Virus record (IMG/VR): IMGVR_UViG_3300020169_000003
Length of the DNA: 35,657 nt
Reading direction: 5' to 3' (one strand)
Origin: a virus
Shown here: in pieces, positions 1-35,657 of the stretch
How positions within the stretch are numbered: position 1 is the stretch's first letter
Layout of the letters: every line of letters begins with the position of its first letter
Translations under genes and position numbers: made by a program
The notes under the pieces: generated by a model
What the model was told of the DNA's origin: nothing
The model's input: the letters and a program-made list of their open reading frames with translations, nothing else
The model's database searches: none

Positions 1-127
1 TCCGTACAGCGCACACATTTGTAGCTGCTGCATCTTATTTCTCACGTCTTGCAGCCGCAGGTGACACTACGCACGTAGCCTACAAGCAACCGCTGACGAA
101 TTACATTACGTCACTTGTTGAACTTGG
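1..127. repeat. Terminal direct repeat, copy 1 (identical to 35531..35657): circular-assembly overlap or terminal redundancy
   Basis: The string tccgtacagcgcacacatttgtagctgctg...tcacttgttgaacttgg is read at both ends of the window. The copies match over the full 127 nt by direct comparison. Confidence 0.95.
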
Positions 128-746
128 TGGTGCTTACTGGGATACAATGGAATCCGCTGCATCCTTCGTAGGTGTAGGTATTCAAGGTATTACTGTTCCT
201 CTACGTGACGGTATGCCTGTCCCTACGCAAAATAACTTTGTTGCAGGTGACTTGGATCAATTGACTGGTCTCAAGGGTGATGCCTCGACTAAGTATTTGG
301 GGACTGGAGTAAATGAAGGATCATTGTCTCAAAACGACTCTTCCATATCTGTATACCTAACGACAGATCGTGACGTAACTCCTACTTCATCATACATTGG
401 CGGAACTATTGGAGTTTTTGCCATTGTAGATAATGCGACTGGATTTAGGTCAAGGCATATGAGTTCGTCACTGCAGACTAATGGAACATCAACTGCTGTT
501 GGTGGAATTATTGGCATATCTCGTGACAATTCCAGTGATTACGATTGGCGTGACGTAGACGCAAGTGGAACAAATATTGATACATCAACAAGTCAGGGCA
601 ATCTTGCAGTTGAAGTGTTTGCATCTAATGGCGGAAGTTTTCTTTGCTCGGCTCGCCTAGCAACTTATCACGCTGGCCCTGCACTTGACCTTGCAACCTT
701 AGAAGGTCTGCAAGACACCCTAATCACAGAAATCGCAGCAATTTAA
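3..746 (+). CDS. C-terminal half (module B) of a junction-spanning 504-aa two-module structural protein; continues from 34762..35657
   Basis: Frame 3 is open from base 3 (RTAHTFVAAASYFSRL...) to the TAA at 744..746. After removing the 127-nt overlap it is in phase with the ORF that runs off the 3' end. The track ORF 147..746 is only the internal-Met part. Confidence 0.8.
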   Translation, partial: RTAHTFVAAASYFSRLAAAGDTTHVAYKQPLTNYITSLVELGGAYWDTMESAASFVGVGIQGITVPLRDGMPVPTQNNFVAGDLDQLTGLKGDASTKYLGTGVNEGSLSQNDSSISVYLTTDRDVTPTSSYIGGTIGVFAIVDNATGFRSRHMSSSLQTNGTSTAVGGIIGISRDNSSDYDWRDVDASGTNIDTSTSQGNLAVEVFASNGGSFLCSARLATYHAGPALDLATLEGLQDTLITEIAAI

Positions 747-748
747 TT

Positions 749-1066
749 ATGACCCCATCAGAATATCTACTAACTAATCCTACGTCTGACGAACACAGCT
801 ACAACTATCTGCTGATTCCTGCAGAACTGCGGGACTCAATGATCGCCAAGCAGGACACCTTGACTACTAGCAATCATATCAGCCCAGTGCTGTTGATTGA
901 CGGACGCTACGGTGCTTGCTGTGACCTCTACACAGAGGTCGGCGTAGGCGGCATCTACCACGAACTATGGGAGATGCTTGACCAAGCTAAACTGGATGAA
1001 TGCGAAGTCGTAGACAAAGATACATTCCTGGCACTGCTACCACCTGACCCAGAACCTGAAGTATAA
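749..1066 (+). CDS. Hypothetical protein (105 aa)
   Basis: Track ORF, tightly packed in the plus-strand structural arm, with an acidic C-terminus (PPDPEPEV). No motif recognised. Confidence 0.6.
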   Translation: MTPSEYLLTNPTSDEHSYNYLLIPAELRDSMIAKQDTLTTSNHISPVLLIDGRYGACCDLYTEVGVGGIYHELWEMLDQAKLDECEVVDKDTFLALLPPDPEPEV

Positions 1067-1234: not shown

Positions 1235-1630
1235 ATGACACCAGAACTGATAGCAATGCTAGGCGGGGGCGTAAGCGGCTTCGTAATGAAGATGATTGCG
1301 GCACAGGCCGATAATCAAGCACGTCTCTTTGAGCGTATGATTGCTCGTCAGACTGTAGCGGACGAGTCAGCGGACAAGGCAGCAGCTCGTGGTGGTGTCT
1401 ATATGCGTCGTGCAATTACGGCGGCAGTTATCTTTGCCATTGTAATAGCCCCATTTGTCTTCGCATTCACGGACATAGGTGTCAGTATTCAATCAGAATC
1501 CAAAGGCTTCCTAGGGCTATTCAAGAGCCTAGAATGGACTACTGTACAGGGTTTTGTTATCCTACCAGAGATCCGCCAAACAGCTTTAGCCATCGTAGGG
1601 TTCTACTTTGGTTCCTCACAAGTCAAATAA
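1235..1630 (+). CDS. Membrane protein (131 aa), holin/lysis-associated candidate
   Basis: Hydrophobic segments are LGGGVSGFVMKMIAA, AITAAVIFAIVIAPFVFAF and ALAIVGFYFG. It is adjacent to another small TM protein. Confidence 0.55.
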   Translation: MTPELIAMLGGGVSGFVMKMIAAQADNQARLFERMIARQTVADESADKAAARGGVYMRRAITAAVIFAIVIAPFVFAFTDIGVSIQSESKGFLGLFKSLEWTTVQGFVILPEIRQTALAIVGFYFGSSQVK

Positions 1631-1737
1631 CAAATAACAAATAATATTATGTACGGACGAAAAACAAAAAGTGCTGGCAAAGGATCCTGTGGTGAACGTG
1701 GTGGAAAGAAAGGCAAGTAGTGCCTGATAAGTCCAAG

Positions 1738-1965
1738 ATGAAGTGCAACGTACCCCGCCGTGAAGTACAAGGTGGGAAGAAGTTCGTCGTGAAAGCCTGC
1801 CAAGGTGGGACAGAGAAACTCGTACGATTCGGGGATGCTAATATGAGCATCAAGAAGGATCAGCCAAAGCGTAAGAAAAGCTACTGCGCTCGTAGCGGTG
1901 GCATCAAAGGTAAGACTAATAAACTATCAGCTAACTACTGGAGCCGTAAGGCTTGGGACTGCTAA
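1738..1965 (+). CDS. Small basic Cys-containing conserved phage/virus protein (75 aa from ATG 1738; the track uses GTG 1720)
   Basis: MKCNVPRREVQGGKKFVVKA...VRFGDANMSIKKDQPKRKKSYCARSGG...SANYWSRKAWDC. The pattern K-C-N-x-P-R ... V-R-F-G-D-x-x-M-x-I-K ... R-K-x-S-x-x-A-R ... Y-W-S resembles a widely distributed uncharacterised viral family, recalled from memory and not verified. Confidence 0.55.
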   Translation: MKCNVPRREVQGGKKFVVKACQGGTEKLVRFGDANMSIKKDQPKRKKSYCARSGGIKGKTNKLSANYWSRKAWDC

Positions 1966-1974
1966 AATAATATA

Positions 1975-4752
1975 ATGCCTGAATACCGCACATACGGAGC
2001 ACAAGACGATAGGATTCTAGAGGACCTCGATATGGGGTACACTGGGTTTAATGACTATCTACGTCCCGATCAACTAGAGCGTGGCCTATTAGCTTCTAGT
2101 AAAAACGGTAGACTTGGTCTTAACGGTGAGTGGCAGGTTAGACCAGGGATTGATTTAGTAGCCGCTCCTTTTGCTAGTGGTGACGATGTCCTTCGACTTC
2201 CAACTACTTCCGAATTAGAAGCAGTTCCTCCAGTTGTTGGCTTACTGCCAACTACAATTAGGTCCGCTTCCTTAACTACGAATGTAGTTACTATTGTTAT
2301 TGATGACCCAGCCGTTGAGCCAGGTCACGTGTTCATTGTTGGGGACGAGATTACAGTCAGCGGTATTGAATTTGGGGCGGACACAAATCCCAACGGAACT
2401 TTTATACTAACTTCCGTAACAGATAACACTGGAACAATATCCCTTACATATGATTTAGTTGGAGGAGATGCAACATATACTTTGCCAGTTGCTTTGCCTC
2501 AAGTCCTTCCATTTGCACTAAATGACATCCAAGGTTCGGCAGTCATTGGTTACAATATGCTACTGGATCAAGGAGGAATTTCAGGTGTTTATGCTAGTAC
2601 AGCGTACAGTAATCCAAATGATTCCGCTAGTCAGTGGGTGCTACTAGGGTCAAACGTAAGCGCACTAGCTATTAACCTAGCGGACCCAACAATTACATAT
2701 GACCTTCCGTACAAAAAGGGAGAAACAGCACCTCCGCTATCGGATATGATTCAAGCCTTTAACAAGGTGTTCTTGTTTCGTGACGGACAGACTGCGCTAG
2801 AATGGGACGGAAGCTTTTTGCCTGTAGCAGTAACTGACCTAGTTGTTGATGGTACTTATTCTATTACTGATTTGGGTGACACGACTCAATTGCAGTGGAA
2901 TACAATCGCTGGAACTTCGGGCATAACTTATGCAGTAAATGATACCATTACGGTTGATGCTGTAGGCACAGGAACGGGTACAGCCCGTTCTGGATTTACA
3001 CCAGTAAAGAGTGGTAAGTACACTCAGCCAGTTCAGATTGATTGCTTGCCTGGAGAGTTTGCTATTACTAATAGTATCGCTTCAGTTTCTGGATCTCACG
3101 ATGTAAAGGTTGGGGATGATATTACTGTAATGTCAGCAAGTATTAGCGGAGCAACAGACGCAGACTCTGGGCTAAGCATTGGTCAGGACTACGTTGTAAA
3201 TAAAGTTTACGAATTAAATGCAGGCACTGCCAATATCACTGGTGTTACTGATGCAGAGTTGCAAAACTCAGGAGACTTTGATGGTTTTTATAAATATACT
3301 ATTACTACAGACGTAGCACATAATTTAGTAATCGGTGAACCCATCATTATGGATGGATGGACTCCCAATGGCACTGCATTTAATGGATCATTTTTTGTTC
3401 AAGGGGTTCCAGATTCTTTTAATTTTGTTATCTATACCACTTTTAATGTTAATCCAACTGATGTGTCATATACAAATGCTCGTGTTGGAATTAATGCAGG
3501 CTTTCAGTTTGTGATTGATTCACGCACAGTTAGTACTCACGTAAATGACGGTGCATCTTTATTGACTGATCCTATCTTTACTAAAAAAGTTTCGGTTGGA
3601 CTGGGCTTTACTCATATGCCAGCTCCACCCTATGCGACCTATCACCAGCGTAGACTGGTTATGCCATATCGCTATTCGGTTGATGATCCAGAAGGGCAAT
3701 ACACCGTCCGTGATAACCTTGATGAAATTATTGTATCGGACATATTGGACTCAGATACCTATGACCAAATATACAATCAGTACAGGTTCAATGCTGGAAC
3801 GGCTGACTTTAACGTTGGACTACTGTCCTTTGCGGATGACAAGCTAGTAGTATTTAACCGTAATTCAATTCACTTAGTAGGTGGCAGCAGCCCTGCAAAC
3901 TCAAGTGTTCAATTAATTACAAATGAAGTAGGTTGCTTGGCCCGTAGGACAATTGTTCAAATTGGTAACAACGTAATGTTCCTATCTGACAATGGTGTAT
4001 ACGGAGCAAACTTCCAGGATCTGTACAACCTTCGTGGTAGCGAACTACCGCTAAGTAGTAGCATCCAGACTACCATTGATAAGATTAATCGTCAGCACTG
4101 GGATCAGTCCGTGGCTGTTTACTTTAACAATCGCTATTACATTGCGGTTCCAACTGACGGAAGCACCGTCAATAATACTATCCTTGTTTTTAACTTTATC
4201 AACAAGCAGTGGGAGTCCGTAGATAGCACGTCTGACGTGGACTGGGACATTGAGAACCTGATCGTAGCTGGTAAGAAAAGTGATCGTGCGGTATACGCAG
4301 TGAATGCCCTTGGAGGGCTTCACAGGGTTGATGCTCGCCCTGATGGCGTTGATCGACTGGCTACTACCATTCCAGTTCAAGGCGAACAGGAGGGCGTTAT
4401 CTACAGTATTCCTGCTGAAGTAACTACCCGTCAGTTTACCTTTAATGACTTCGGTCGTAAACGCTGGAGTGAATTTGAGATGCACGTGCAGTCCAGTGCA
4501 TCAGAGCAATCTGACTTTGATATTTCAGCGGAAGTAGAAAACATTGACGCAGAGGTAAATCTTAATACATTGAGTTCATACATTGGTGGAAGTCTCGAAA
4601 TTGACGAAGATGTTTCCATCCGTGGTAGAATAGGTAACCGCCGAGGATACGGCATTCAATTTACAATTAATAATACACAGGGTCGCCCAAGAGTCCGAGG
4701 AATCAAAGTCTCTGGAGCAACTGCATCAAGATCAACAACTAGCGTACAATAA
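1975..4752 (+). CDS. Large tail protein (925 aa), nozzle / tail-tubular-B-like candidate
   Basis: Called on size and position upstream of the fibres. The C-terminal part (VVFNRNSIHLVGGSS...VGCLARRTIVQIGNNVMFLSDNGVYG...NNRYYIAVP...ILVFNF) looks like a beta-propeller tail/stabilisation protein. The N-terminal part carries three copies of a 'G(D/E)xIxVxG...NGxF' repeat. Confidence 0.5.
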   Translation: MPEYRTYGAQDDRILEDLDMGYTGFNDYLRPDQLERGLLASSKNGRLGLNGEWQVRPGIDLVAAPFASGDDVLRLPTTSELEAVPPVVGLLPTTIRSASLTTNVVTIVIDDPAVEPGHVFIVGDEITVSGIEFGADTNPNGTFILTSVTDNTGTISLTYDLVGGDATYTLPVALPQVLPFALNDIQGSAVIGYNMLLDQGGISGVYASTAYSNPNDSASQWVLLGSNVSALAINLADPTITYDLPYKKGETAPPLSDMIQAFNKVFLFRDGQTALEWDGSFLPVAVTDLVVDGTYSITDLGDTTQLQWNTIAGTSGITYAVNDTITVDAVGTGTGTARSGFTPVKSGKYTQPVQIDCLPGEFAITNSIASVSGSHDVKVGDDITVMSASISGATDADSGLSIGQDYVVNKVYELNAGTANITGVTDAELQNSGDFDGFYKYTITTDVAHNLVIGEPIIMDGWTPNGTAFNGSFFVQGVPDSFNFVIYTTFNVNPTDVSYTNARVGINAGFQFVIDSRTVSTHVNDGASLLTDPIFTKKVSVGLGFTHMPAPPYATYHQRRLVMPYRYSVDDPEGQYTVRDNLDEIIVSDILDSDTYDQIYNQYRFNAGTADFNVGLLSFADDKLVVFNRNSIHLVGGSSPANSSVQLITNEVGCLARRTIVQIGNNVMFLSDNGVYGANFQDLYNLRGSELPLSSSIQTTIDKINRQHWDQSVAVYFNNRYYIAVPTDGSTVNNTILVFNFINKQWESVDSTSDVDWDIENLIVAGKKSDRAVYAVNALGGLHRVDARPDGVDRLATTIPVQGEQEGVIYSIPAEVTTRQFTFNDFGRKRWSEFEMHVQSSASEQSDFDISAEVENIDAEVNLNTLSSYIGGSLEIDEDVSIRGRIGNRRGYGIQFTINNTQGRPRVRGIKVSGATASRSTTSVQ

Positions 4753-4754
4753 TT

Positions 4755-5384
4755 ATGGCGGATATTACAATTACCCCAGCAGGGTTACCATTCGGCGGAA
4801 CTGATACCGTAACTTCAACTCGGCTTAATGAAGCCCGTAACCCTACGGCTGCCTTGGATGCAGGAACCATAGTCAACGCAGACGTGTCAGCTACTGCTGA
4901 TATTTCAGGCAGCAAACTTGCCAATACAAGCGTGACCTTTGCAAAGCTTGATGATGTCATCGACGATGACACAATGGGTACTGCCACTAATACTACTTTA
5001 GCTACTTCGGAAAGCATTAAAGCTTATGTTGATGAATACGCTATGAAGTACAGCACTGCCACCGGGACCATAAGTATTGGCATTGCGTGGGCAAACTGGG
5101 ACCTGTCGGGCACAATTGGAACGCAACGCTGTCTTGTCATTCTCGAATTGTACAATTCGAGCGCTTCGTATAACCTAAATTTCCGCACACCTGGTTCAAA
5201 TAGGACATCCTTTGACGCTCAAAGTAATGCGGGATGGGGAGCATCTGGCGGCATTGTGAGTACTTTATCCAGGGGTTCATCCTTTGCAGTGGTCACTGAC
5301 GCATCTGGTATTATTGAAGTTGAATCCTCATTAGCAGCAACCGCTGTGTCCTATAGGATCTTAGCATACCAAAAACTAGCTTAA
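4755..5384 (+). CDS. Tail fibre / receptor-binding protein paralog 1 (209 aa)
   Basis: Shares the segment 'N(T/A)xVTFAKLxDVIDDDTMxTATxxTLATSESIKxYVD' with the next ORF. The C-terminal ~110 aa is unrelated. Confidence 0.6.
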   Translation: MADITITPAGLPFGGTDTVTSTRLNEARNPTAALDAGTIVNADVSATADISGSKLANTSVTFAKLDDVIDDDTMGTATNTTLATSESIKAYVDEYAMKYSTATGTISIGIAWANWDLSGTIGTQRCLVILELYNSSASYNLNFRTPGSNRTSFDAQSNAGWGASGGIVSTLSRGSSFAVVTDASGIIEVESSLAATAVSYRILAYQKLA

Positions 5385-5421
5385 TGAACCCTTTCCTCCA
5401 ATCAGCTTAACAATTTAAATT

Positions 5422-6039
5422 ATGGCCATTATAAATAAAGGAACAGCTTTCTCCAACGGAGAGCAACTATCAGCAAGCAAGCTTAATGATTTAGTAGATG
5501 GAGCTACCTTTGGTACTGACTCTGTTGATAACGCCAGTACACTGGTAAACGCTAGCGGAGCTATTACAGTTCGGGATAGCGGGATTACTACCGCCAAGAT
5601 TGCAAATGCTAACGTGACTTTTGCGAAGCTTACAGATGTTATTGATGATGATACAATGGCTACAGCTACTGCCGATACTTTGGCTACGTCCGAAAGCATC
5701 AAGTCCTATGTCGATACAACAGTAGATAATCTGCCAAGTCTTAAGGCTCACTGTGTGTGGGACGGCACTTTAACAGGAACAAATGCTCCGATTAGCGGAA
5801 GTGGAGTTGCAAATGTAACTCGTAACGGAAATGGTAATTGGACTATTAATATGTCTGTTTCAGCTCCATCAAGTAGTTTTACAACTCTAGCAAGTTCTCA
5901 AGCTAAGAGTAACGGAACTACTAATAATGCAACTGGTGCGTACTCAACTAGCACTGTAACTGCATTGGTAACCCGTGAGCAAGCTGATGGTTCTGGTGCT
6001 GATGGAGACACGCCAATATCATTCGCTGCTATTTGGTAA
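5422..6039 (+). CDS. Tail fibre / receptor-binding protein paralog 2 (205 aa)
   Basis: Has the same conserved N-terminal ~95 aa as 4755..5384. The C-terminus is Ser/Thr/Asn/Gly-rich and divergent. Confidence 0.6.
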   Translation: MAIINKGTAFSNGEQLSASKLNDLVDGATFGTDSVDNASTLVNASGAITVRDSGITTAKIANANVTFAKLTDVIDDDTMATATADTLATSESIKSYVDTTVDNLPSLKAHCVWDGTLTGTNAPISGSGVANVTRNGNGNWTINMSVSAPSSSFTTLASSQAKSNGTTNNATGAYSTSTVTALVTREQADGSGADGDTPISFAAIW

Positions 6040-6040
6040 T

Positions 6041-6529
6041 ATGAACCCCCGCCTGCAATCAGTACAACTAGCGTTGCAAAACGCTACGCAAAAGGAAGCC
6101 CTTGTTTTTATTGATAAGGTAGTGAACTTCTGTATTGAAGGCCAGAACAGCAAGGTCCTTGAAGGGTGGAGCGAGGATACGATCAGACTTCTCGTTGCGT
6201 ACCATATATCAAAGAATACATTCCTACATACTGAATCCAAGGATGCAGAAATAACTGGAGTTCTGATGTGGTACAATTGTAACTATGAAGACAACTGGAA
6301 ATTTGTTGAAGAATGGCATTTGGATGACAAGAATGGAGATACTGTTTTTCTTGCATTTATGTGGGCATCTAATACTAAAGATTTTAAAAGGCTGATAATG
6401 AATCTGATTGTTAATGAGCCAACTGTATTATCTAAAAAACTCACTAGTCTAAGGACTAAAAACAAACAACCAACTAAAATTGATTACAGCACAAAAGTGT
6501 TTGCTAAGATTTTAAGTTTAAAAGATTAG
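6041..6529 (+). CDS. Hypothetical protein (162 aa) in an AT-rich insert
   Basis: ATG 6041 lies 1 nt after the fibre-2 stop. The track ORF 5975..6529 begins earlier, inside the fibre gene. Hand counts of 60-nt lines give about 27-33% G+C, against the mid-40s in flanking genes. Confidence 0.6.
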   Translation: MNPRLQSVQLALQNATQKEALVFIDKVVNFCIEGQNSKVLEGWSEDTIRLLVAYHISKNTFLHTESKDAEITGVLMWYNCNYEDNWKFVEEWHLDDKNGDTVFLAFMWASNTKDFKRLIMNLIVNEPTVLSKKLTSLRTKNKQPTKIDYSTKVFAKILSLKD

Positions 6530-6538
6530 GAATATATT

Positions 6539-7903
6539 ATGGGAAGCAAAGGAGGAAACGAACCAGAAATGCCAGATCCACGTAAAACTGGGCCAGCTAA
6601 TATGATGGCCGAGTATATGTTTGGATACGGAGCAGGCAAACAACAATACAAGGGAATTACTGACGCAGGATTACAAAGCAGGATTCTTGGGGCTGAAAAA
6701 CAATTTAGACCACAGTACCTAGATTTAGAACTTACTGATTTAAGCAATAGATTGTATGGACTTGAGGCTGGTCGTGAAAACCCAAGAATTCAAACATTAA
6801 ATCAGCAAATTAAGGCTAAACAAGCTGAGAGGCTAAGAGCAATGCGAAGCGGTGAGCCTGTTAAAAAGATAAACCGGCAACTAAGAAGTCTCAGAGAAGC
6901 CCTTGCAGAAACTCCTGAAACCATTGATGAGGCAACTCCAGGTATGTTTGAACTCAGTCGAGCAGCGGCAGAGGAAGCAGGCATAACACAGCGGAGTGAA
7001 GAGGATCTACAACGTGCAGCGGACGTAGGAGCACTTGAGCAGTACGCTCCTCAAGTTGTTGAAGCGTACCGTGAAGCTGATCCTTATAGCACTGGACTTG
7101 CAGAGTCCCAGACTGCTATGGCGCAGGATCTTTACCAACGTGCTCAAGGTTTAAACCCAGAGCAGCAGCGTATAGCTGACCAGCAAGCCTTGCAGATGTC
7201 TCAGCGTGTAGGTCGTATAGGGGATGAAAGCTCTGTAGCTAGTCAGATCCTTGGACGCGAGAACTATCTTTCTGGTTTGCGTTCTGAAGCAGCAGGTATG
7301 GGACAACAGGCTTTTGGTATGAACAAATTAATGGCTGGTGACTCAGGTATGGCTATACTTGGCCGACCAACTCAGTCTGCTGTAGGGGGGTCCGCATTAA
7401 TGGGATCTACTCAAGGTCTGCGTACTGGACCTGCACTGTTTGATCCTAATGCTGGTGTTAATTACGGTATGCAGAACCAAGCGAATATGATGGGACTACA
7501 GGGTGCTCAAGCTCAGGCTGCTGCATCTCGATCCGCTGGTATGTCTGGTATGATTGGACAGATTGCACCCGCAGTACTAGGGAGTGCTAGCAAGTATGCA
7601 GCAGGTAAACTTGCTACTAGCGCAGCCGCTACTGCAGCGGGAGGGGCCGCTAAAGCAGGAATCGGAGCAAAACTCGGTACGATTGGTTTAAAGGCCCTTG
7701 CAATGTTTTGCTGGGTAGCTCGTGAGGTTTACGGAACTGAAACCGACGAGTGGATGAAGTTCCGTGAGTGGATGCTTAACGATGCTCCTAGTTGGTTCCG
7801 TAAGCTTTACATTAAGCACGGCGAACGCTTTGCTAAGTTTATTTCCAATAAGCCTCGTCTTAAAGCAATCATTCGTAAATGGATGGATACAAAAATTAAA
7901 TAG
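6539..7903 (+). CDS. Internal virion / ejection-type protein (454 aa)
   Basis: Its position parallels the T7 gp14-16 block. It has a Gln/Ala/Gly/Met-rich low-complexity centre, a hydrophobic stretch, and the C-terminal motif CWVAREVYGTETDEWMKFREWMLNDAPSWF, which I recall from marine phage structural proteins (unverified). Confidence 0.45.
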   Translation: MGSKGGNEPEMPDPRKTGPANMMAEYMFGYGAGKQQYKGITDAGLQSRILGAEKQFRPQYLDLELTDLSNRLYGLEAGRENPRIQTLNQQIKAKQAERLRAMRSGEPVKKINRQLRSLREALAETPETIDEATPGMFELSRAAAEEAGITQRSEEDLQRAADVGALEQYAPQVVEAYREADPYSTGLAESQTAMAQDLYQRAQGLNPEQQRIADQQALQMSQRVGRIGDESSVASQILGRENYLSGLRSEAAGMGQQAFGMNKLMAGDSGMAILGRPTQSAVGGSALMGSTQGLRTGPALFDPNAGVNYGMQNQANMMGLQGAQAQAAASRSAGMSGMIGQIAPAVLGSASKYAAGKLATSAAATAAGGAAKAGIGAKLGTIGLKALAMFCWVAREVYGTETDEWMKFREWMLNDAPSWFRKLYIKHGERFAKFISNKPRLKAIIRKWMDTKIK

Positions 7904-7905
7904 TT

Positions 7906-8748
7906 ATGGCATTTCAAACAGGATCACAAATCGACCCCCGTCTAATGCAGGCGGATTACAGCGGCTTTACAAACGCCGCTAACATACGAGCGAACGCACT
8001 AGCTAACCTTGGTCAGCAGATTGGTGGGGCTATTGAGTCCTACGGCATCAGGAAGGAGAAGAAGGCTAACCAGAAGCTTAGATACGAATCCATCTTGCCT
8101 TATACAACTCAACAGTTCGGAGCTGAAGAAGGAGAGAAAATGGCACAGCAATTTGCACTTGATCCGGCATTGACATCCCAGGTAATGCAGTTTGCTACAA
8201 TCCAAAAGGATCAAGAAGTTCTCGATAAAGCTCTTGCAGTAAGTACGAATACTGATGGCACGACTGACTGGGGACAAACTGTTCAATCTTATATTGAATT
8301 AGGTGGAAGTGATCCACGGATGGTTGCCGGTCTAGCTTCGGAAGCACGTAAATCCGATCCTAAGGAAGCATTTACTCCATCAGTAATGGAGGTAGATGGC
8401 GTGACATTCGCTATAACCAGTAAGGGAGGTGCTCAAGTTATTAGTACCCCTGACGGTGGTGAGATTAAATTACCGGCAGGTGCTCAATTGACCGAGTACA
8501 AGATTAAAAAACTTGCAGAAGCCAAAGAACTATATAGGTCAGGAGATGCAAGTTCAGCCCAGGACATTATTACTGGTCTAGGACTTCAAGATAAACTAAG
8601 CAACGCACCATTTACTCCAAAGGAAATTTTTCCTGGAGTTGTACCTGAAGTTGTACCCAAAGTTGTTACCCCGGATGGTACTGCAGTTGGTGATGAAGAA
8701 GAGAGCCTTCAAGATATTATTGCCAGAAATCTAACACCAAATCAATAA
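7906..8748 (+). CDS. Internal virion-type protein (280 aa)
   Basis: Track ORF, translationally coupled to its neighbours (TAATG overlap with the next gene). No enzymatic motif seen. Confidence 0.45.
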   Translation: MAFQTGSQIDPRLMQADYSGFTNAANIRANALANLGQQIGGAIESYGIRKEKKANQKLRYESILPYTTQQFGAEEGEKMAQQFALDPALTSQVMQFATIQKDQEVLDKALAVSTNTDGTTDWGQTVQSYIELGGSDPRMVAGLASEARKSDPKEAFTPSVMEVDGVTFAITSKGGAQVISTPDGGEIKLPAGAQLTEYKIKKLAEAKELYRSGDASSAQDIITGLGLQDKLSNAPFTPKEIFPGVVPEVVPKVVTPDGTAVGDEEESLQDIIARNLTPNQ

Positions 8749-11700
8749 TGGAGTTTACCGATGAACAGCTCGAAACCGCTATTCGTAATGCTGATTCTGC
8801 TGGTAACGTACAGGACGTACAGGCATTAGCAGTTGAATACAATCGTCGCAAGCAGGCATCTCAACAGGACAGGGGTCTAGTTGAAGAGGTAGCCTACCTT
8901 GCGGATGACTTTGCGAATCAATTCACTCTATCAATAGCTAATATAGCTGGTTCTCCAGTTGATCTTATTAGCTTCGGGTTGAACAAGATATCCAATGCTA
9001 TCATTGACGAGGATATAGTATACCCTGATTCCTTTGGCGGTTCATCGAGTATCAAGAGGGCCTTGGCGTATATAGGGACTCGTGAAGAGGCTCCTAGGAC
9101 TAAAGCTGGTTATGTGGGTCAAGTAGGAGGTGAAGCTGCTGCTTTTACTATGCCCCTGCTTAAGCTGGCGCAGGTAACAAGTAAGACAAAGGCAGTCACG
9201 GGAGCTGGTAAGGTTGCTCAAGCTATTGCAAAGGACTTCACAGATGAAGCGGTTACTAAAACTGGGAGGCTCCTTGCCATTGAATCCGGGGCCGCAACAA
9301 CCGGTGGACTTGCAGGAGAGTACGCTGAGAATGAGAATCTAAGCCCAGGTGCTGCATTGGCCGTAGAGGTCCTTGCTGGCGTAGCTGGTGGCTTTGCTGG
9401 TGCTGGTGCGTATAATATTCCCAAGTCCCTCCTCAAGAAGGTACAGGGCAAGAATGCTACAGAGATAATGGAAATGGTATCCAATGGTTCTATTGAGTAC
9501 AAGGATCTGGACTGGGCGTTGGAAAGTAAACCGTTGTTTAAGGACGATGGTAGATTCACATTTGATGAATCATTACAGCCCGGTGACATTGAAACAAGGG
9601 GCAAGGGCATTCAGTTTCACGGAACATCCGAGCCAGTTTCAGTTTTACGTTCTGCTGATGATGCTGCGTCAGAAATGAATATATATGGACAGGGTTTTTA
9701 TACAACGGAGGCTCTGGATGTAGCGGAAGGATATACGAAAAAAGGAAAGGGTTCAAAGCCAAGCATTTATAAAGTACAGGAGGTCGCTCCAGTTAATATA
9801 TTAAATATTGATGAATTTCAATTTAAAGATTTAGGTGAACTTGGACTAGGTTATGAGTTCAAGGAAGTAATAGATGAACTTCCCAATAATGCTACTGTAC
9901 GTCAAGTCTTTGACGCTATTAGAGATGAAGTTGATTTGCCAACATACGAAATACAAGAGATGGCATTTTATCCTATAAATGACAGAATACAGGAACTAGG
10001 ATACGGTGGTATTGAGCACATCGGAGGAAAGATATTTAAGAAAAAACCTCACAAGGTTAAGATTTATTTTGATGCTGAAAATCAAATTAATTTATCTGAA
10101 ATAAAACCAGAGGGATCACTTCCTGGTGTAGTCAAGAAACCCTTGGATGCACCAAAGCCAACAATGCCGGGTGTTGTCCGTGAATCATTTGAGTTCCAAG
10201 CTGCACGTCAAGAGATAGCCAATAACGTTTCCAACAAACAAAAGGTTGAGGCTGCTGTTGCATTGAACAACTTGGACAACTATAGACCCGATTCTCCATT
10301 AAATCCAAAGAGGATGATCAACAAGATCCTGTCGGTATTTGCTCCGTCAAAGGTTCTTGGTAACGATATTGTAAATGAAATTGAAATGGCCAAGGGTACT
10401 ATTAACCGAGCACAGGAGTTAGGTGCTAGAGTTAAACGTGTAGTAGGTCGTCTGGAAAAGAAGGACCCGACTGTACGAGAAAGTGTTGACGTTTTCCTAA
10501 AGGGCGGAGAGATGGCCCCATCACTTGACCCAGTTAAGGTTGAGTTAATTAAGTGGAGAGAAACAATTCAGGAGTTACAAGGTACATTACTTCAAGGTAT
10601 GGATGATGAAGTCTTTGAGGGACTATCAAAGGCAGGCCAGAAGGAAGTACGTGAAACTATCGAGGCTTCTATCGAACAGGGTTACTTGACTCAGACATAT
10701 AAGATCTTCCAGGATCCTGACTATCGACCTACCAAGGCTCAAGAAGATGCCGCACTAAAGGAGATACAGCTGAAGATTATGATGGGTGCTGATGCTGGGA
10801 CTATGACAATGCCACAAGCTGAGGACTTAGCCCGCAAGCAAATGGACCACCTAAGGAAAAGTTCAGCGCGGCAGAGAAAGGCGGAAGGAAGGCAACAGGG
10901 AGCCGTGAAGGAATCCAAGGGTATACTACGTGAGCGCAGTAATCCAGGACCAGCGGAACGCGCTTGGCTTGGTGAGGTCACTGATCCCAAGGAGCGAGCA
11001 TTTAGTACAGCTAATAGATTAGCTAGACTAGCATCATCAAAAGCTGAGGATGTTGCGATAGCTAAATTCCTTTTGGATTCTGGAGTTGCTACACGCAGGC
11101 CAGCTAACCCCGATCAAGTTCAGATGAAGTTCCGAACCATTGAGGGGGACTCATCAGTGTTCATTGATCCAGAGGTAGCGCACTCATTAGATATGATGCG
11201 CTTTGGAGAAGCCAATACTGTTAAATCCGGGATAGCTGGGTATCTGGATAGAATCTGGAATGCTTGGGTTGGTACTTCAAAGTCAACTAAGGTTTTACTA
11301 AATCCTGAGTCCTATATGGTTAATTTATTTGGAGCCGTGGCTAGTACTATTTCCTCTGGGATTATACCAACCCCTAAGGGGTTTCGTTCGGCTCTGTCTG
11401 ACTTCGGATCCTGGGATGATTTACTTTCCGGTAAAAACACTGTAGGCCGACGCGCACTACTGGATGACATCGATAAGATGAACCAGTACGGATTGAAGCC
11501 CAAGAGCGTTAATGCTGCTGACATCGAGCAAAATGTTATCAAGGGACTGGAGGGATTAAATAAATCCTTGAAGGGAGGCATAAGGGCAACAATGGATGGG
11601 TTCGGCAAGGCTTACTCCGTTGGTGATACATCAATGCGATATGTAGTATGGAAAGGTAACCAGAAGCAATTAAAGAAAATGTTCCCGGACTATAGCGTTT

Positions 11701-13277: not shown

Positions 13278-14006
13278 CTATGGTTTCTTATATTTGATAA
13301 GTAAATCTTTTAGGTTACGCTTCTCATCCTGTAACTCCTTTCGCTGCTCGGTCATACGATCAATGCGGTAGGATAGAAGCCTGGATTCCTGCCGAATCAT
13401 ATCGATCTGGGTCTGGATTCTTTCAATGTTTTCTTCATTGTCTTGCATCCTCTGAACTTGTATGGAAGCCTTCTCTTTGTCAACAAATAACTCAGGAAAA
13501 TTTAACCCTTCTAGGGGATAATTTAACTCCTCGTAGCAGAAGGTATCACGGGCAATAGCGGCCTCCTTCTCGTCATCAAAGTAGCCCAGTTCATACAGCT
13601 TCCTGCTCTTGCCTCTACCTACATCAATTGTAACTCGGCATCTTTTCTTTCCAGATGGCCAGTATACTCCGCGGTACTTGGAATTGCCCTTTATCTTTTG
13701 TGACCCCCTTAGATTCTGAGATCGTGTGACGTACCGAAGGTTGTACGGAGCATTGTTTAATTTATCCCCATTGATATGATCAACGTCATAGTTGTTGGGT
13801 CTCGATCCAAGGAAGGCTCTTGCGATTAAATCGTGAATCTTTAATGAATGTGAGTTAATGGTATGCTGCACGTAACCTCTACCGTCCGTGCATCCAAAAG
13901 TACGACCTCTACTGCGCGGAACGTGAACCTCTATACTGCCATCCGAGTAACAGGTTACTCTTATTCCATTTACGCTTATATCCCTTGATGTTTCTGTAGC
14001 TATCAT
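13278..14006 (-). CDS. HNH-AP2 homing endonuclease (242 aa)
   Basis: The HNH_3-type motif is DHINGDKLNNAPYNLRYVTRSQN. It is followed by an AP2-like motif, SKYRGVYW...RVTIDVGRGKSRKLYELGYFDDEKEAAIARD. Confidence 0.8.
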   Translation of the reverse strand: MIATETSRDISVNGIRVTCYSDGSIEVHVPRSRGRTFGCTDGRGYVQHTINSHSLKIHDLIARAFLGSRPNNYDVDHINGDKLNNAPYNLRYVTRSQNLRGSQKIKGNSKYRGVYWPSGKKRCRVTIDVGRGKSRKLYELGYFDDEKEAAIARDTFCYEELNYPLEGLNFPELFVDKEKASIQVQRMQDNEENIERIQTQIDMIRQESRLLSYRIDRMTEQRKELQDEKRNLKDLLIKYKKP

Positions 14007-21860: not shown

Positions 21861-22016
21861 TCAGTCCTGTTGGTATTGCTCAAGTGTCCGGCATCCTGTC
21901 CGTACGAACAGGATATCTAGATAGGTTTCCTCGCTGTTGCCATTGATTGACGTAACAAGAGAAATTTCCTCTTCGGTTGCTATATTCATTTCTATTAGTG
22001 TTTCGTATGTGTCCAT
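21861..22016 (-). CDS. Hypothetical small protein (51 aa)
   Basis: Below the track cutoff. Translation: MDTYETLIEMNIATEEEISLVTSINGNSEETYLDILFVRTGCRTLEQYQQD. It is preceded by the conserved AAGAAAGGA ribosome-binding cassette. Confidence 0.5.
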   Translation of the reverse strand: MDTYETLIEMNIATEEEISLVTSINGNSEETYLDILFVRTGCRTLEQYQQD

Positions 22017-22028
22017 TGTTATCCTTTC

Positions 22029-22346
22029 TTATTTGTTAAGTTTGCTAGTTAATTCCTTAATGCCCTTATTGAGCCGCTTGACTGCTTCCTCTTGAATACG
22101 GGTTAATTCCCGATCTTCCTCTGCATCTACGCTGTCCCTAATCTCCTTCAGATAGTCGCGATGCGCTGCTGCCCTCTCATATATAGCTTTAAGAGCCGCA
22201 ATAGCTTCCTCCTGCATCTCCTTACAGAAGTCCTGAGTGATTGACTCCTCGGCCATAAGCTTGCCAGCCGCCCGCAGTTTATCGGTAAAGAAATCAATTT
22301 CCCAATATCTGTCTTCGATGCTTAGTGATTCTGTTTTGTCTTTCAT
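22029..22346 (-). CDS. Coiled-coil protein (105 aa)
   Basis: Track ORF, charged and helical, preceded by the same AAGAAAGGA cassette. Confidence 0.6.
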   Translation of the reverse strand: MKDKTESLSIEDRYWEIDFFTDKLRAAGKLMAEESITQDFCKEMQEEAIAALKAIYERAAAHRDYLKEIRDSVDAEEDRELTRIQEEAVKRLNKGIKELTSKLNK

Positions 22347-22365
22347 TGTTTTCCTTTCTTATGTG

Positions 22366-22557
22366 TTATGCGTTTATGTCAGTAATGTAGTATTGAGTGA
22401 CGCACGAAACAAAGTTTTCAACGCTTTGCAAGTTTACTCCCTTGGCGTAATAGCGAATGAATCTTGCTGGCTCTGTTGTCTCAATACCTTGGCAAGCTTC
22501 TGTCTTATTAGCTCCGATTATTGCGTTAAATGCTTCTTTAGTTATTTCAATAGTCAT
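22366..22557 (-). CDS. Hypothetical protein (63 aa), first gene after an internal promoter
   Basis: Track ORF, preceded by the AAGAAAGGAAAAAAA-ATG cassette. Confidence 0.6.
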   Translation of the reverse strand: MTIEITKEAFNAIIGANKTEACQGIETTEPARFIRYYAKGVNLQSVENFVSCVTQYYITDINA

Positions 22558-22638
22558 TTTTTTTCCTTTCTTATGTGTTAAAGCTTAATCTTCGATTAAG
22601 CGCGATATGCAGCGGGCTTTTCCCGTGCCTCAATTACT

Positions 22639-30127: not shown

Positions 30128-30130
30128 GAT

Positions 30131-30610
30131 ATGACACCTGATCAATACGCAAACAAGCGGACTGACGAGATGTTATTCCCCAAGCGACTACAGGAAGCAA
30201 ATGAAATGGCTATGGAAAGGGGTAAAAATTTTGGTTACCAAGTGCGACCAAAATTATTCCCTGGAGAAATAGAATATTTCAAGAAAAACCCTGATACTCC
30301 AGGATATGCTGACTTTGAAAGTGACTCCATTGTGTTAAACCCATTCTCTACATTGCCTGCCGAGGAATTAACTTTTTTGGTAGACAATGAAAGTATTCGT
30401 TTAAAAATGAATAAAGATGAGTTTGTCCCATCTGATTTTAAAATTACTCCAGAACAAAAAAAGTTCTTTGAAAAAACTCCCTACAAAGATAATCCTGTTG
30501 CTATGCGACAAACTATTCTTGCTAGGGCTTATAGTGGTGATAATCAATCAATGGAATATACACCAGAGCAACTCAAGGAACTTGAATCATATTTATCTAA
30601 TGGCGAATAA
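30131..30610 (+). CDS. Hypothetical protein (159 aa) sharing an N-terminal peptide with the lysozyme
   Basis: MTPDQYANKRTDE... The 17-mer CTGATCAATACGCAAAC at 30138..30154 is repeated exactly at 30619..30635. Confidence 0.6.
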   Translation: MTPDQYANKRTDEMLFPKRLQEANEMAMERGKNFGYQVRPKLFPGEIEYFKKNPDTPGYADFESDSIVLNPFSTLPAEELTFLVDNESIRLKMNKDEFVPSDFKITPEQKKFFEKTPYKDNPVAMRQTILARAYSGDNQSMEYTPEQLKELESYLSNGE

Positions 30611-31127
30611 TATTACAGCTGATCAATACGCAAACCAACGAGCAAAGGATCTACGAGCACAGGAATACTACGATATGATTGCCCTTAATGAGGGTGTCAA
30701 ACCAAAGGTATACAAGGACAGCAAGGGTCACAGGACCATTGGTGTTGGCTTTAATTTAGAAGATGCCGGTAATCGAAAGATCCTAAAGAAAGAAGGCATT
30801 GATATTAATGAACTCTTTAAGGGTAAAGAACTGAGTGACAAGGAAATCAAAAGACTGTACAATCATAGTCTAACCCAAGCTTTTAATGACGCTCAAAAGT
30901 TTGACAAAGGATTTGCTAAACGACCTGAGCCAGTAAAGAAGGCAATTGTCGATATGTCATTTAACCTTGGCCTTACTAAACTCAATAAGTTCAAGAAGAT
31001 GCGTGAAGGTCTTGAGGCAAATGACTACAGCGTAGCAGCAGATGAAATGGTTGATAGTGAGTGGTTCAAGCAAATCAAGTCCCGTGGTCCACGAACAGTA
31101 GGTTTAATGCGTTCAGCCGCTAAATAA
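30600..31127 (+). CDS. T4-type (GH24) lysozyme (175 aa)
   Basis: Trimmed from track ORF 30417..31127 to ATG 30600. ALNEGVKPKVYKDSKGHRTIGVGFNL matches the T4 lysozyme E...D...T catalytic region (compare [23 protein letters not shown]). Confidence 0.85.
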   Translation: MANNITADQYANQRAKDLRAQEYYDMIALNEGVKPKVYKDSKGHRTIGVGFNLEDAGNRKILKKEGIDINELFKGKELSDKEIKRLYNHSLTQAFNDAQKFDKGFAKRPEPVKKAIVDMSFNLGLTKLNKFKKMREGLEANDYSVAADEMVDSEWFKQIKSRGPRTVGLMRSAAK

Positions 31128-33561: not shown

Positions 33562-33870
33562 ATGGATATTATTATTCCTGATTCGAATACTTACTCCGAT
33601 GAGGAGATTAATCGTGCCTTAATACAAGAGATCCAGGGTAGCCTAGATCTAGAAAGAGCGACCGAAAAGGATCGCTACCAACAAGCAGCTAAGGAGGCAC
33701 ATCAATTGAAAGGAACTGTCCACCCTACATTGGGACGGCCAGTGGCCACAATGCCAGCACGAGAGTTTTTTCGACTGGTAAAGAAGTACGGTCAAGAGAC
33801 TGTGCATTCTAAAGAATTTTTGCAGTACTACAATAAGAAGTTCCCAGAACTCAGCCCCAATAAAATTTAA
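33562..33870 (+). CDS. Hypothetical protein (102 aa)
   Basis: Track ORF. It starts directly after the terminator's T-run. Confidence 0.6.
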   Translation: MDIIIPDSNTYSDEEINRALIQEIQGSLDLERATEKDRYQQAAKEAHQLKGTVHPTLGRPVATMPAREFFRLVKKYGQETVHSKEFLQYYNKKFPELSPNKI

Positions 33871-34478
33871 TGCAGACAAAAACCTACAGCGATTTATATA
33901 ATTTAGTGCAAGCACTTTCGGGTGTAGGTAGTTTCACCGCAGAGGAGAAGCTTAATATTTTACAGTTCGTCAATCGTCGAGCATTTGAAGCATATCGGAC
34001 TAGCTCAAGTTGGCCACGATACGCTGTAATCGGAGAGGAGCGCACCCTTGGTACAAATGGACTTGTACCTTATGTGCAAGCTGGACTGGATAATATTTCT
34101 GATTTTCAACGTATTTACCGTAGTCAACCATTCCTACGTAACTCTGCATTGGAGTACGAGTTCTACGTTGATTCAAACGGAGCGCACGTAATTAATATAG
34201 TTACAAATGATTCGACTTCTGTATTTGTAAACTACCAGAAAGAACTACCTACGTTTACTGAGGAATCCACAAATATTCCTTATGAGTTCTTCTTCTACCT
34301 AGCGCACTCAGTGTATGCTGACTTCCTACGAATGGATGGTCAGACTGACAAGGCTATCACTGAAGAGCAAGTTGCCGGGACTTACCTAGCCCTTGAGCTG
34401 GAGAAAATCGACCTTCGCTCTAACAACAATACAATCAACAAAAAGTTTTCAACTTACGTAAGTCGTCAAGCACGATAG
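33870..34478 (+). CDS. Head-tail adaptor / tail-tubular-A-like candidate (202 aa)
   Basis: The call rests only on size and position (after the capsid, before the other tail genes). No motif recognised. Confidence 0.35.
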   Translation: MQTKTYSDLYNLVQALSGVGSFTAEEKLNILQFVNRRAFEAYRTSSSWPRYAVIGEERTLGTNGLVPYVQAGLDNISDFQRIYRSQPFLRNSALEYEFYVDSNGAHVINIVTNDSTSVFVNYQKELPTFTEESTNIPYEFFFYLAHSVYADFLRMDGQTDKAITEEQVAGTYLALELEKIDLRSNNNTINKKFSTYVSRQAR

Positions 34479-34502: not shown

Positions 34503-34760
34503 ATGGCTAACTCAAAAAACAACGCACTGGAATTTTCCTCGGCTGGATCAGAAATCCTTGAAGCTGCGAATGCAGTAACAGGTAAACGCTATGGAGCGTT
34601 ACAAATCTTAAATGACACTGTGTTCGGTGCTTTGACTGCATCCAGCATTGATGGTACAGCTAAGCTAGTTGGACCAACCTTTGCTGCTGGAACAATCCTT
34701 TATGGGGCATTCAGCGAAGTAACAGTAACTTCTGGTATTGTAGCAGCGCACAAGTACTAG
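34503..34760 (+). CDS. Hypothetical small structural-arm protein (85 aa)
   Basis: Track ORF, Ala/Gly/Thr-rich. Confidence 0.55.
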   Translation: MANSKNNALEFSSAGSEILEAANAVTGKRYGALQILNDTVFGALTASSIDGTAKLVGPTFAAGTILYGAFSEVTVTSGIVAAHKY

Positions 34761-34761
34761 T

Positions 34762-35657
34762 ATGCACCTGAGCCTAAATAATAGCTTAGGCAAATGGATA
34801 TTGCCTAAAGAGCCATCACCGTTCTCGCCAGAGGCACTGAACTACTTTAGCCGCCTGGACGCAGCAGGGGACACCACCTACGTTGATTACAAGCAGCCAC
34901 TAGCTAACTACATTGATAGTCTAGTATCGCTGGGCGGAGCATACTGGGACACAATGGAATCCTCTACGTCCTTTGTGGGTGTAGGTATTCAAGGTATCAC
35001 AGTTCCCCTACGTGACGGGATGACTGTCCCTACGGAAAATAACTTTGTTGCGGGTGACTTGAGTCAGTTGACTGGTCTATTGGGTGATGGTACTTCGAAG
35101 GAAATAAACACTAACACGAATCAATCAAATTACGCACAGGATGACACTTCAGCCAGTGTATATAGAACAGAAACTGTAAGCGGAACCAATCCTTTTTACT
35201 TCGGAACAAACCTTGCAAATGGCTTTGGGGCTAGAGGCACAGCGAGCTTTATTACTGCCTGTTACGGTGCGCAAGCTATAACTGGAAGTGCTTCTACTAC
35301 CGTTGGTCTATTGGGACTTTCTCGCTCGGCTTCAACGGGCTATGACTACCGATCAAATGGGACAACTGGTACACGCACAACAGCATCGGTTACGCCAGCT
35401 TCTGGCAATCTGGATATATTTGCTATTAACGGAACAACAAGTGGTTCGTTCCGATTAGCAACCTACCACGCAGGTCCTGCACTAGACCTAGCTACCTTAG
35501 AGGGCTTACAAGCAACTTTACTTTCCGAGATCCGTACAGCGCACACATTTGTAGCTGCTGCATCTTATTTCTCACGTCTTGCAGCCGCAGGTGACACTAC
35601 GCACGTAGCCTACAAGCAACCGCTGACGAATTACATTACGTCACTTGTTGAACTTGG
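34762..35657 (+). CDS. N-terminal half (module A) of the junction-spanning 504-aa two-module protein; runs off the window end and continues at 128..746
   Basis: ATG 34762 lies 2 nt after the upstream stop. There is no stop codon to the window end, and it is in phase with frame 3 at the window start (35533 corresponds to base 3). It is absent from the track only because it has no stop inside the window. Confidence 0.8.
   Translation, partial: MHLSLNNSLGKWILPKEPSPFSPEALNYFSRLDAAGDTTYVDYKQPLANYIDSLVSLGGAYWDTMESSTSFVGVGIQGITVPLRDGMTVPTENNFVAGDLSQLTGLLGDGTSKEINTNTNQSNYAQDDTSASVYRTETVSGTNPFYFGTNLANGFGARGTASFITACYGAQAITGSASTTVGLLGLSRSASTGYDYRSNGTTGTRTTASVTPASGNLDIFAINGTTSGSFRLATYHAGPALDLATLEGLQATLLSEIRTAHTFVAAASYFSRLAAAGDTTHVAYKQPLTNYITSLVEL
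35531..35657. repeat. Terminal direct repeat, copy 2 (identical to 1..127)
   Basis: Direct comparison of both ends. Confidence 0.95.

Follow-up and report, generated by a model that had tools for sequence, protein, structure and literature searches.

What does a virus make from a gene that carries the same module twice in a row, when the two copies are alike at both ends and differ in the middle? The question is raised by IMG/VR record IMGVR_UViG_3300020169_000003, a marine phage DNA of 35,657 nt that was analysed as a single strand, 5' to 3', and is called the window below. A model reading the sequence alone had noticed that one open reading frame (ORF) spans the two ends of the window and encodes 504 aa in two tandem paralogous modules of ∼245 aa. 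We have compared this gene, here called the module gene, with its relatives. With a probability of about 0.6, its product is a beads-on-a-string adhesin of the late operon, composed of framed modules with a concanavalin-A-like (ConA-like) fold, whose glycan-binding cores are exchanged as cassettes by recombination.

The module gene and its two halves

The window is a circularly closed contig with a unit genome of 35,530 bp, as its last 127 nt are identical to nt 1-127 (Table 1). Joining 34762..35530 to 1..746 yields one uninterrupted ORF of 1515 nt with a product of 504 aa, as the sequence-only reading had it. The ATG lies one base past the stop codon of an upstream 85-aa gene, and the next gene begins 2 nt past the stop of the module gene.

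Since the ORF crosses the window ends, and since the terminal overlap falls within a region that has a paralogue, the tandem duplication could be an assembly artefact fusing two strain variants over the contig junction; such a mis-join had been named as one of two outcomes that would undo the claim. It is hardly credible given the other assemblies. The identical 504-aa protein is encoded in the interior of three further contigs, with 0 nt differences in the gene in each: JGI 3300020595 (35,587 bp, 1 mismatch to the window outside the gene), ENA ERZ807182 (18,376 bp, 9 mismatches) and ENA ERZ807183 (3,539 bp, 0 mismatches). Therefore the gene is not a mis-join. A false join through the 127-nt overlap is impossible, because it shares only ∼70% identity with the paralogous stretch in module 1. 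Moreover, two or three modules are found in 109 of the 120 closest homologues. To the extent that assemblies can tell, this excludes a mis-join; the module gene and its tandem duplication are real.

Aligned with each other, the halves (aa ∼21-258 and 259-504) are 54% identical (BLASTP, E = 9e-81), in agreement with their description as paralogues. In the alignment, the first ∼93 codons reach 78% identity and the last 28 reach 86%; the centre stands at ∼30%. We call these parts the N-frame, the C-frame and the core, or core cassette. The module ends are as similar as had been claimed. By contrast, the centres, which had been considered essentially unalignable, show 29% identity (E = 2e-10) and shared anchor residues when aligned alone.

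The flanks of the cores had also been described as near-identical in nucleotide sequence, which they are not: between the modules, the N-frames are 72% and the C-frames 70% identical, the longest exact match is 20 nt, and the synonymous sites of the frames are saturated. The exception is a single tract of 160 nt in the N-frame, which reaches 86% nucleotide identity and has the lowest synonymous divergence between the two modules (pS 0.29, compared to ∼0.8 in the rest of the frame). This tract encodes ...GGAYWD..SFVGVGIQGITVPLRDGM..NNFVAGDL.QLTGL and includes the 20-nt exact match. Judging by these alignments, it is likely to be the left-hand recombination substrate.

Core types and their exchange

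Each half of the protein matches PHROG 17104, whose members have one module and are classed as of unknown function. The match has E 2e-55 and consists of two stretches, of which the better covers profile positions 10-262 of 264. A word-indexed search found 193 close homologues. Among the top 120 of these, one module is present in 11 proteins, two in 81 and three in 28, and modules in the multi-module proteins always abut directly. From these 120 proteins we cut and aligned 238 complete modules. Module positions 4-100 and 217-246 are nearly invariant, while core positions ∼100-216 have an average entropy of ∼3 bits, with only S113, S115, G170, R173, S194 and F205 conserved. Variation is concentrated in the central segment, as the sequence-only reading would have it.

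The variation is of a particular kind. The pairwise identity of cores has a bimodal distribution with the main mass at 10-40% and a second peak at 70-100%, and at 50% identity the cores fall into 57 discrete types. Core and frame are conserved to about the same degree within a type; in type 39, the core is the more conserved of the two (entropy 0.21 compared to 0.57 in the frame). Between types, strands vary as much as loops (2.39 and 2.65 bits, respectively), and the differences include indels. Because the cores form discrete types, are conserved within a type, and vary in strands and loops alike, the centre does not appear hypervariable in the sense of antibodies or of diversity-generating retroelements (DGRs). 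Rather, the alignments point to a library of whole, anciently diverged sandwich bodies.

A conserved scaffold with a variable region superficially resembles the targets of DGRs, and one could suppose that the diversity of cores is made in situ, by a DGR or another form of hypermutation, and not by exchange of existing cassettes. The chance of this is negligible. The genome has no template repeat, that is, no second copy of either core anywhere, and there is no reverse transcriptase among the ORFs scanned. In addition, hypermutation would have to account for indels between types, for strands replaced as much as loops, for cores conserved within types to the degree of the frame, and for an identity distribution with two peaks instead of a continuum.

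Exchange of cassettes is seen in the order of core types. It is 39-22 in the window protein, 22-39 in P0004, 39-45-22 in P0001, 52-39-46 in P0003, and 41-39 in P0016. Among the 20 well-sampled core types, 17 are present in at least two positional classes, and 96 multi-module proteins have 89 distinct ordered architectures. Types 39 and 22 each occur behind at least four different variants of the N-terminal helix. The C-frame tracks the position and not the core type, ending in ...DTLITEIAAI in the last module and in ...SEIRTA in internal modules. Avoidance of repeated core types within one protein was considered and rejected, as the deficit (1 observed compared to 4.3 expected) was not significant (P = 0.06).

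Two contigs demonstrate the borders and the mobility of the cassettes. The backbone of contig L009 is ∼89-92% identical to the window; homology is lost at nt ∼279 and regained at nt 654. These breakpoints coincide with the N-frame/core and core/C-frame borders of module 2, and core 22 is replaced by modules 7-46. In contig L007, the backbone is 69-73% identical to the window, while its cores 39 and 22 are 85-87% identical and stand in the reverse order.

The same discordance is found in synonymous divergence, estimated by the Nei-Gojobori method on six loci with short segments. Cores of the same type have dS of 0.03-0.23, while in the adjacent frames dS ranges from 0.18 to saturation and is mostly above 0.3. 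By this difference, the cassettes are younger than the sockets holding them. The ratio dN/dS (omega) is mostly 0.05-0.3 in the frames and 0.17-0.95 in cores within a type, never above 1. Thus, of the rigid frame and the hypervariable middle under diversifying selection that had been proposed, the frame stands, while the middle resolves into discrete types with no such signal. These ratios indicate that purifying selection on the protein, and not recent homogenisation, maintains the frames, with the 160-nt tract as an exception.

Overall, the comparison with relatives, the breaks in L009, the order of cores in L007, and the discordant dS values strongly support cassette exchange by recombination with breakpoints at the frame/core borders. 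The sequence-only reading had suggested such an exchange; its argument, drawn from near-identical flanks inside one genome, does not hold for flanks of 70-72% identity.

Predicted fold and proposed role

AlphaFold2 modelled the full protein from a 61-sequence alignment with a predicted local distance difference test score (pLDDT) of 88.8 and a predicted template modelling score (pTM) of 0.80. In this model, each module starts with two helices at its N-terminus, continues as a beta-sandwich of some 12 strands, and ends in a helix. The order of helices and strands is the same in both modules, and helix 243-275 runs unbroken from module 1 into module 2. A single-module model made from 65 diverse relatives has pLDDT 94.2 and pTM 0.91.

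When compared to the PDB with Foldseek, the models matched almost exclusively carbohydrate-binding sandwiches of the ConA-like/LamG type, with probability 1.0 and E down to 3.6e-5. The non-phage matches include AbnA domain 4, CBM40, the lectin domains of trans-sialidase and Vibrio sialidase, clostridial neurotoxin Hc, galectins, legume lectins, laminin LG domains, and neurexin LNS pairs; the ConA-like matches have template modelling (TM) scores of 0.44-0.52. Two phage proteins were also matched, the tailspike of cyanopodophage Pan3 and CBA120 TSP2. The Pan3 tailspike (PDB 9vyh chain p, 269 aa) is similar in size to a module and has Foldseek probability 1.0 to both models, but the TM-score is only 0.37-0.42 with a root-mean-square deviation of ∼8 A, and there is no detectable sequence similarity. 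The top-ranking entries of BFVD, a database of predicted viral structures, are phage proteins that carry the names ConA-like, LamG, tail fibre or adhesin, and single-module phage proteins are also matched at TM ∼0.75.

With high confidence, each module is predicted to be a ConA-like/LamG-like beta-sandwich, at the level of the superfamily. The earlier guess of a lectin or jelly-roll-type fold agrees with these matches to carbohydrate-binding domains, and structure prediction gives both modules one and the same fold.

The ConA-like superfamily also includes glycoside hydrolases, and both GH43-/GH54-associated domains and tailspikes are among the Foldseek matches, so the modules might be enzymes of the glucanase branch, that is, polysaccharide depolymerases, and not binding domains. 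This is very improbable: the matched parts are non-catalytic binding domains (AbnA domain 4, lectin wings, CBM40), and there is no acidic catalytic pair among the residues conserved across core types.

We propose the following arrangement for the adhesin. The frame would comprise three helices, two N-terminal and one C-terminal, together with the first strands and the last one; the C-terminal helix would fuse with the first helix of the next module. Under strong purifying selection, it would fold and join the modules and probably anchor or oligomerise the chain. The core, whose ∼120 aa form the bulk of the sandwich, would set the binding target, most likely a cell-surface glycan. The cores would form a population-wide library of discrete, anciently diverged types moving between phages and positions by homologous recombination, with breakpoints in the frame at both core edges, and it is this recombination at the frame borders that would let phages have from one to three modules, combined in nearly any way. 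What we infer is that the protein is part of the virion, be it on the tail, neck or head, that it binds glycans, and that it acts in adsorption or in setting the host range.

A more far-reaching version, to which we would give slightly less than even odds, is a new "plug-and-socket" adhesin of aquatic phages. Here, a universal frame of helices and edge strands would accept any of a large environmental library of lectin-like cores and be chained one to three times, yielding combinatorial glycan specificities, and cassettes would sweep between lineages far faster than the genomes diverge, apparently across podo-, sipho- and myoviruses. The library would be of considerable scale, with at least 57 types in only 120 close homologues and >1,000 clusters (50% identity) family-wide. 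If this were true, module content, and not the genome backbone, would define the host or strain range, and with primers on the frames, seawater itself could be typed for adsorption "serotypes".

Mosaic tail fibres and receptor-binding proteins (RBPs) with horizontally exchanged specificity domains are well known, for example, T-even gp37/38, lambdoid stf, and the heads of lactococcal RBPs. As in the module gene, the specificity segment between conserved flanks was swapped more recently than the backbone diverged. Unlike these systems, the unit exchanged in the module gene is internal to a domain, and the conserved flanks on either side belong to the fold of that domain. Chains have one to three such units linked by a continuous helix, the predicted fold is ConA-like, and a unit can change its position in the chain as well as the genome that carries it. 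The module protein may also sit elsewhere than on the tail. ConA-like, LamG and LNS domains and CBM40-type modules share the predicted beta-sandwich and can also be tandem, as in laminin LG4-5 and neurexin LNS1-6. However, they have no sequence-profile relationship to the modules, and they lack the helical frame and the continuous inter-module helix. Flagellin also has conserved helical termini that serve assembly and an exposed divergent centre, which forms discrete serotypes and is exchanged by recombination. This is a functional analogy only, as the fold and the biology are unrelated and flagellin has no tandem repetition.

While the principle of mosaic exchange is known, the module locus is uncommonly clear and lends itself to quantification: sequence alone reveals what unit is exchanged, where it begins and ends, and which types make up the library. 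If the modules bind host glycans, the invariant frames provide universal primer sites for surveying the diversity of adsorption specificity in marine viromes, the cassette content may predict the strain-level host range of uncultured phages, and the frame is a natural scaffold for engineering phage binding specificities.

Gene neighbourhood and placement of the protein

The family extends well beyond the close homologues. A HMMER scan of 1.84 billion representatives with module 2 yielded 1,186 clusters (50% identity) at E <= 1e-3, most of them single-module (∼255-285 aa); two- and three-module forms also occur among the 30%-identical relatives. Deposited phage genomes include five distinct carriers: the siphoviruses S-CBS4 (gp056/gp057) and KBS-S-2A (CPKG_00050/00051), the myoviruses S-CBWM1 (gp87) and S-CRM01 (g24), and the T7-like podovirus S-SRP02 (p008). 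All five infect Synechococcus, which makes the hypothesis testable with existing isolates. Their proteins are true sequence homologues at ∼30% identity, with E values of 1e-22 to 1e-34 against the hidden Markov model (HMM) of the module. They share with the window module its length, the frame motifs (NFV.GD..TGL.GDG.TKY and RL..Y..G.ALDLA.L), and a late-gene context, but have one module per gene, sometimes in two adjacent genes, as opposed to the fused tandem modules of the window. Other family members start with an alternative leader of ∼32 aa (MALSLGS..KVYLGATE..AYLGATQVY). Literature searches with incomplete coverage produced no paper describing the family or its arrangement. The family is widespread and uncharacterised, and has no Pfam model or solved sequence relative.

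A scan of 185,579 species genomes with close-clade patterns found no relative. The same scan with a central family member found seven loci, all on contigs of metagenome-assembled genomes (MAGs) with no host link. Six are on contigs of 2-8 kb and are probably binned phage DNA. The seventh (L016, CALRBF010000001.1, 4001-4741) is a single-module member, 53% identical to P0201, on a 425-kb contig labelled as a Parcubacteria MAG, which could be a very large phage or prophage carrier.

In the window, the module gene belongs to the late structural operon and is preceded by three small head-proximal genes and the gene of the SU10-type major capsid protein. Pfam and PHROG comparisons of ∼30 ORFs around it recognised only this capsid protein, a large terminase, lysozyme-like, DnaB, nuclease and HNH endonuclease proteins, and a 925-aa protein similar to internal virion proteins or amidases. 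In S-CBS4 and KBS-S-2A, the homologues lie ahead of the tail genes, with the head-tail adaptor on one side and the head-closure/neck genes on the other. Elsewhere, the neighbours are tail or tail-fibre genes. In S-SRP02, p008 closes a block that follows the tail fibre gene; g24 of S-CRM01 comes directly after a collagen-repeat "tail fiber" gene, in a cluster adjoining the neck genes gp13/gp14; gp87 of S-CBWM1 follows a 1,209-aa ConA-like protein and a collagen-like gene; and Pfam Phage_tail_C is found in the gene that directly precedes the module gene in L006 and L007.

The podovirus S-SRP02 and the two siphoviruses have five or six genes in common as a block, the module gene among them (Table 1), with p003 and gp053 60% identical, p005 and gp055 75% identical, and the record of p007 noting similarity to CPKG_00053. 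By these similarities, the fibre-gene block seems to move across phage morphotypes. The nearest isolate to the window is Phage C75C1, with 62% capsid identity and the single weak match in a megablast search of 10.5 kb against cultured phages. The slot of the module gene is there occupied by an unrelated hypothetical protein of 449 aa (L011 15189-16538), which suggests that the slot as a whole is replaceable.

The capsid-proximal position in the window, the neck neighbours in the siphoviruses and S-CRM01, and the unrelated protein in C75C1 would all suit an accessory fibre of the head or neck that sticks to glycans weakly and reversibly and is not the primary tail receptor-binding protein. T4 Hoc and the head fibres of phi29 are decoration adhesins of this sort, and a gene block moving among podo-, sipho- and myoviruses fits an add-on better than a core part of the tail. 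We give a head or neck fibre clearly less than even odds but take it seriously. Against it stand the tail fibre gene preceding the S-SRP02 block, the tail-tip domain Phage_tail_C encoded immediately upstream in L006 and L007, and the tailspikes among the structural matches; besides, gene order is weak evidence for location.

Other evidence bears on the presence of the adhesin in the virion at all. In five relatives (P0093, P0101, P0104, P0116 and P0120), a module is fused in one chain with a domain that is 40-51% identical to S-CBS4 gp059, the first four having 40-42% identity to the whole of gp059; in P0101, this domain stands in the middle between two modules. The GenBank label of gp059 is "virion structural protein". 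As direct homologues of the module, S-CBS4 gp058 and gp059 were rejected (module HMM E > 0.3), and the link is via fusion only. Just upstream of the module gene, L007 has two genes that are absent from the window (6952-9997). One product is a protein of 887 aa composed of repeats resembling S-CBS4 gp059; the other, of 119 aa, scores 24.3 bits for Phage_tail_C at its C-terminus, above the cut-off of 23.7. Of these two, the 119-aa gene is also seen in L006, a shorter contig (758-1117). Neither the gp059-like domain nor the 887-aa protein has a Pfam match.

A lectin-like protein that acts in or on the infected cell, for instance in superinfection exclusion or surface masking, and is in the late region by chance would agree with the lack of proteomic evidence for any family member and with database names that are all "hypothetical" or absent, PHROG 17104 being of "unknown function". 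Such a non-virion role is improbable, given the tight coupling of the gene within the structural operon, the fusion to the gp059-like domain, and the collagen-like and tail-fibre genes next to it in three isolates. No signal peptide or membrane segment is evident by eye in the leader, and cassette swapping of this kind is typical of host-recognition proteins such as mosaic tail fibres.

Several observations weigh against the adhesin. The Foldseek TM-scores are moderate (0.37-0.52), and for this reason the fold assignment is at the superfamily level only. The window protein has no Pfam match at E <= 10, a Pfam scan of 65 diverse family members matched no LamG or lectin family, and when profiles of the two-module and of the single-module alignment were run against PDB sequences, there were chance matches or none. 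The fold consequently rests on predicted structure: by the models, the modules fit the ConA-like fold, but they fail sequence-profile membership in any curated lectin family. A conserved sugar- or Ca-binding motif was not identified in the module family. The selection of homologues by similarity to the window protein enriches types 39 and 22 and inflates the conservation of the frame. The homologues in cultured cyanophages, including S-CBS4 gp056/057, are all annotated as hypothetical. Among the ∼30 ORFs annotated in the window, no tail-fibre gene is recognisable near the module gene, and the neighbours are head-proximal. Finally, no family member has been located in a virion by experiment or proteomics, and literature searches on the proteomics of the cyanophage homologues were unproductive.

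Table 1. Location of the module gene, its parts and its neighbours in the window, and of the gene block shared by three cyanophages (own numbering of each record).
Feature	Location	Strand	Remarks
Module gene, first part	34762..35530	+	codons 1-256 and first base of codon 257; ATG at 34762
Module gene, second part	1..746	+	remainder of codon 257 through codon 504; stop at 744-746
N-terminal leader	34762..34821	+	aa 1-20 (MHLSLNNSLGKWILPKEPSP); low-confidence modelling
Module 1 N-frame	34822..35088	+	aa 21-109; two helices, first strands, ...NNFVAGDL.QLTGL block
Module 1 core cassette	35089..35451	+	aa 110-230; core type 39; bulk of the beta-sandwich
Module 1 C-frame	35452..35535	+	aa 231-258 (RLATYHAGPALDLATLEGLQATLLSEIR..); last strand and helix continuing into module 2; last 5 nt (35531-35535) numbered in the overlap copy, equal to window nt 1-5
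Module 2 N-frame	6..281	+	aa 259-350
Module 2 core cassette	282..653	+	aa 351-474; core type 22
Module 2 C-frame	654..743	+	aa 475-504; terminal-position variant ending ...LQDTLITEIAAI
160-nt tract, module 1 copy	34930..35089	+	86% identical to 123-282
160-nt tract, module 2 copy	123..282	+	in module 2 N-frame; partner of 34930-35089
Overlap copy	35531..35657		exact 127-nt copy of nt 1-127; assembler overlap marking a circular contig, not a biological repeat
Upstream 85-aa gene	34503..34760	+	tightly coupled to the module gene; conserved in relatives, with 59% identity in L007
Downstream 105-aa gene	749..1066	+	conserved beside the module gene; 84% identity in L007
Shared block, S-SRP02 (L013)	1580-5781
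Shared block, S-CBS4 (L001)	5873-10507
Shared block, KBS-S-2A (L002)	6470-11007

The two immediate neighbours of the module gene (85 and 105 aa) have no Pfam match, and the 105-aa product falls into no known family. A homologue of the 105-aa gene is found in cyanomyovirus S-CBWM1 (L014 6899-7225; 36% identity, E 4e-10), two genes downstream of the module gene. The product of the 105-aa gene may be a partner or assembly factor.

The 202-aa gene at window 33870-34478 is a second variable slot, with the variable part at about 33893-34300. Homology to relatives is lost in the middle of the gene and retained at both ends; L008 and L009, with ∼90% identical flanks, encode 307-310 aa in this slot, and Phage C75C1 encodes 351 aa.

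Two kinds of short repeats were observed elsewhere in the window. A 29-nt motif (TTCATTGTT.TCCTTTCTTAT.TGTTAA-like) is present in three copies of 83% identity (22011-22039, 22341-22369 and 22553-22581), spaced by 330 and 212 nt among small minus-strand early ORFs; these may be regulatory or promoter-associated repeats. A 31-nt repeat of 87% identity is located at the start of a 159-aa ORF (30129-30159) and just upstream of the lysozyme-like domain of the next gene (30610-30640), where ATT takes the place of the ATG of the first copy. The 159-aa ORF and the next gene may share a duplicated N-terminus.

Finally, an HNH endonuclease gene (13278-14006, minus strand; Pfam HNH_3, E 1.7e-14) is located at the border between the structural genes and the oppositely oriented replication genes.

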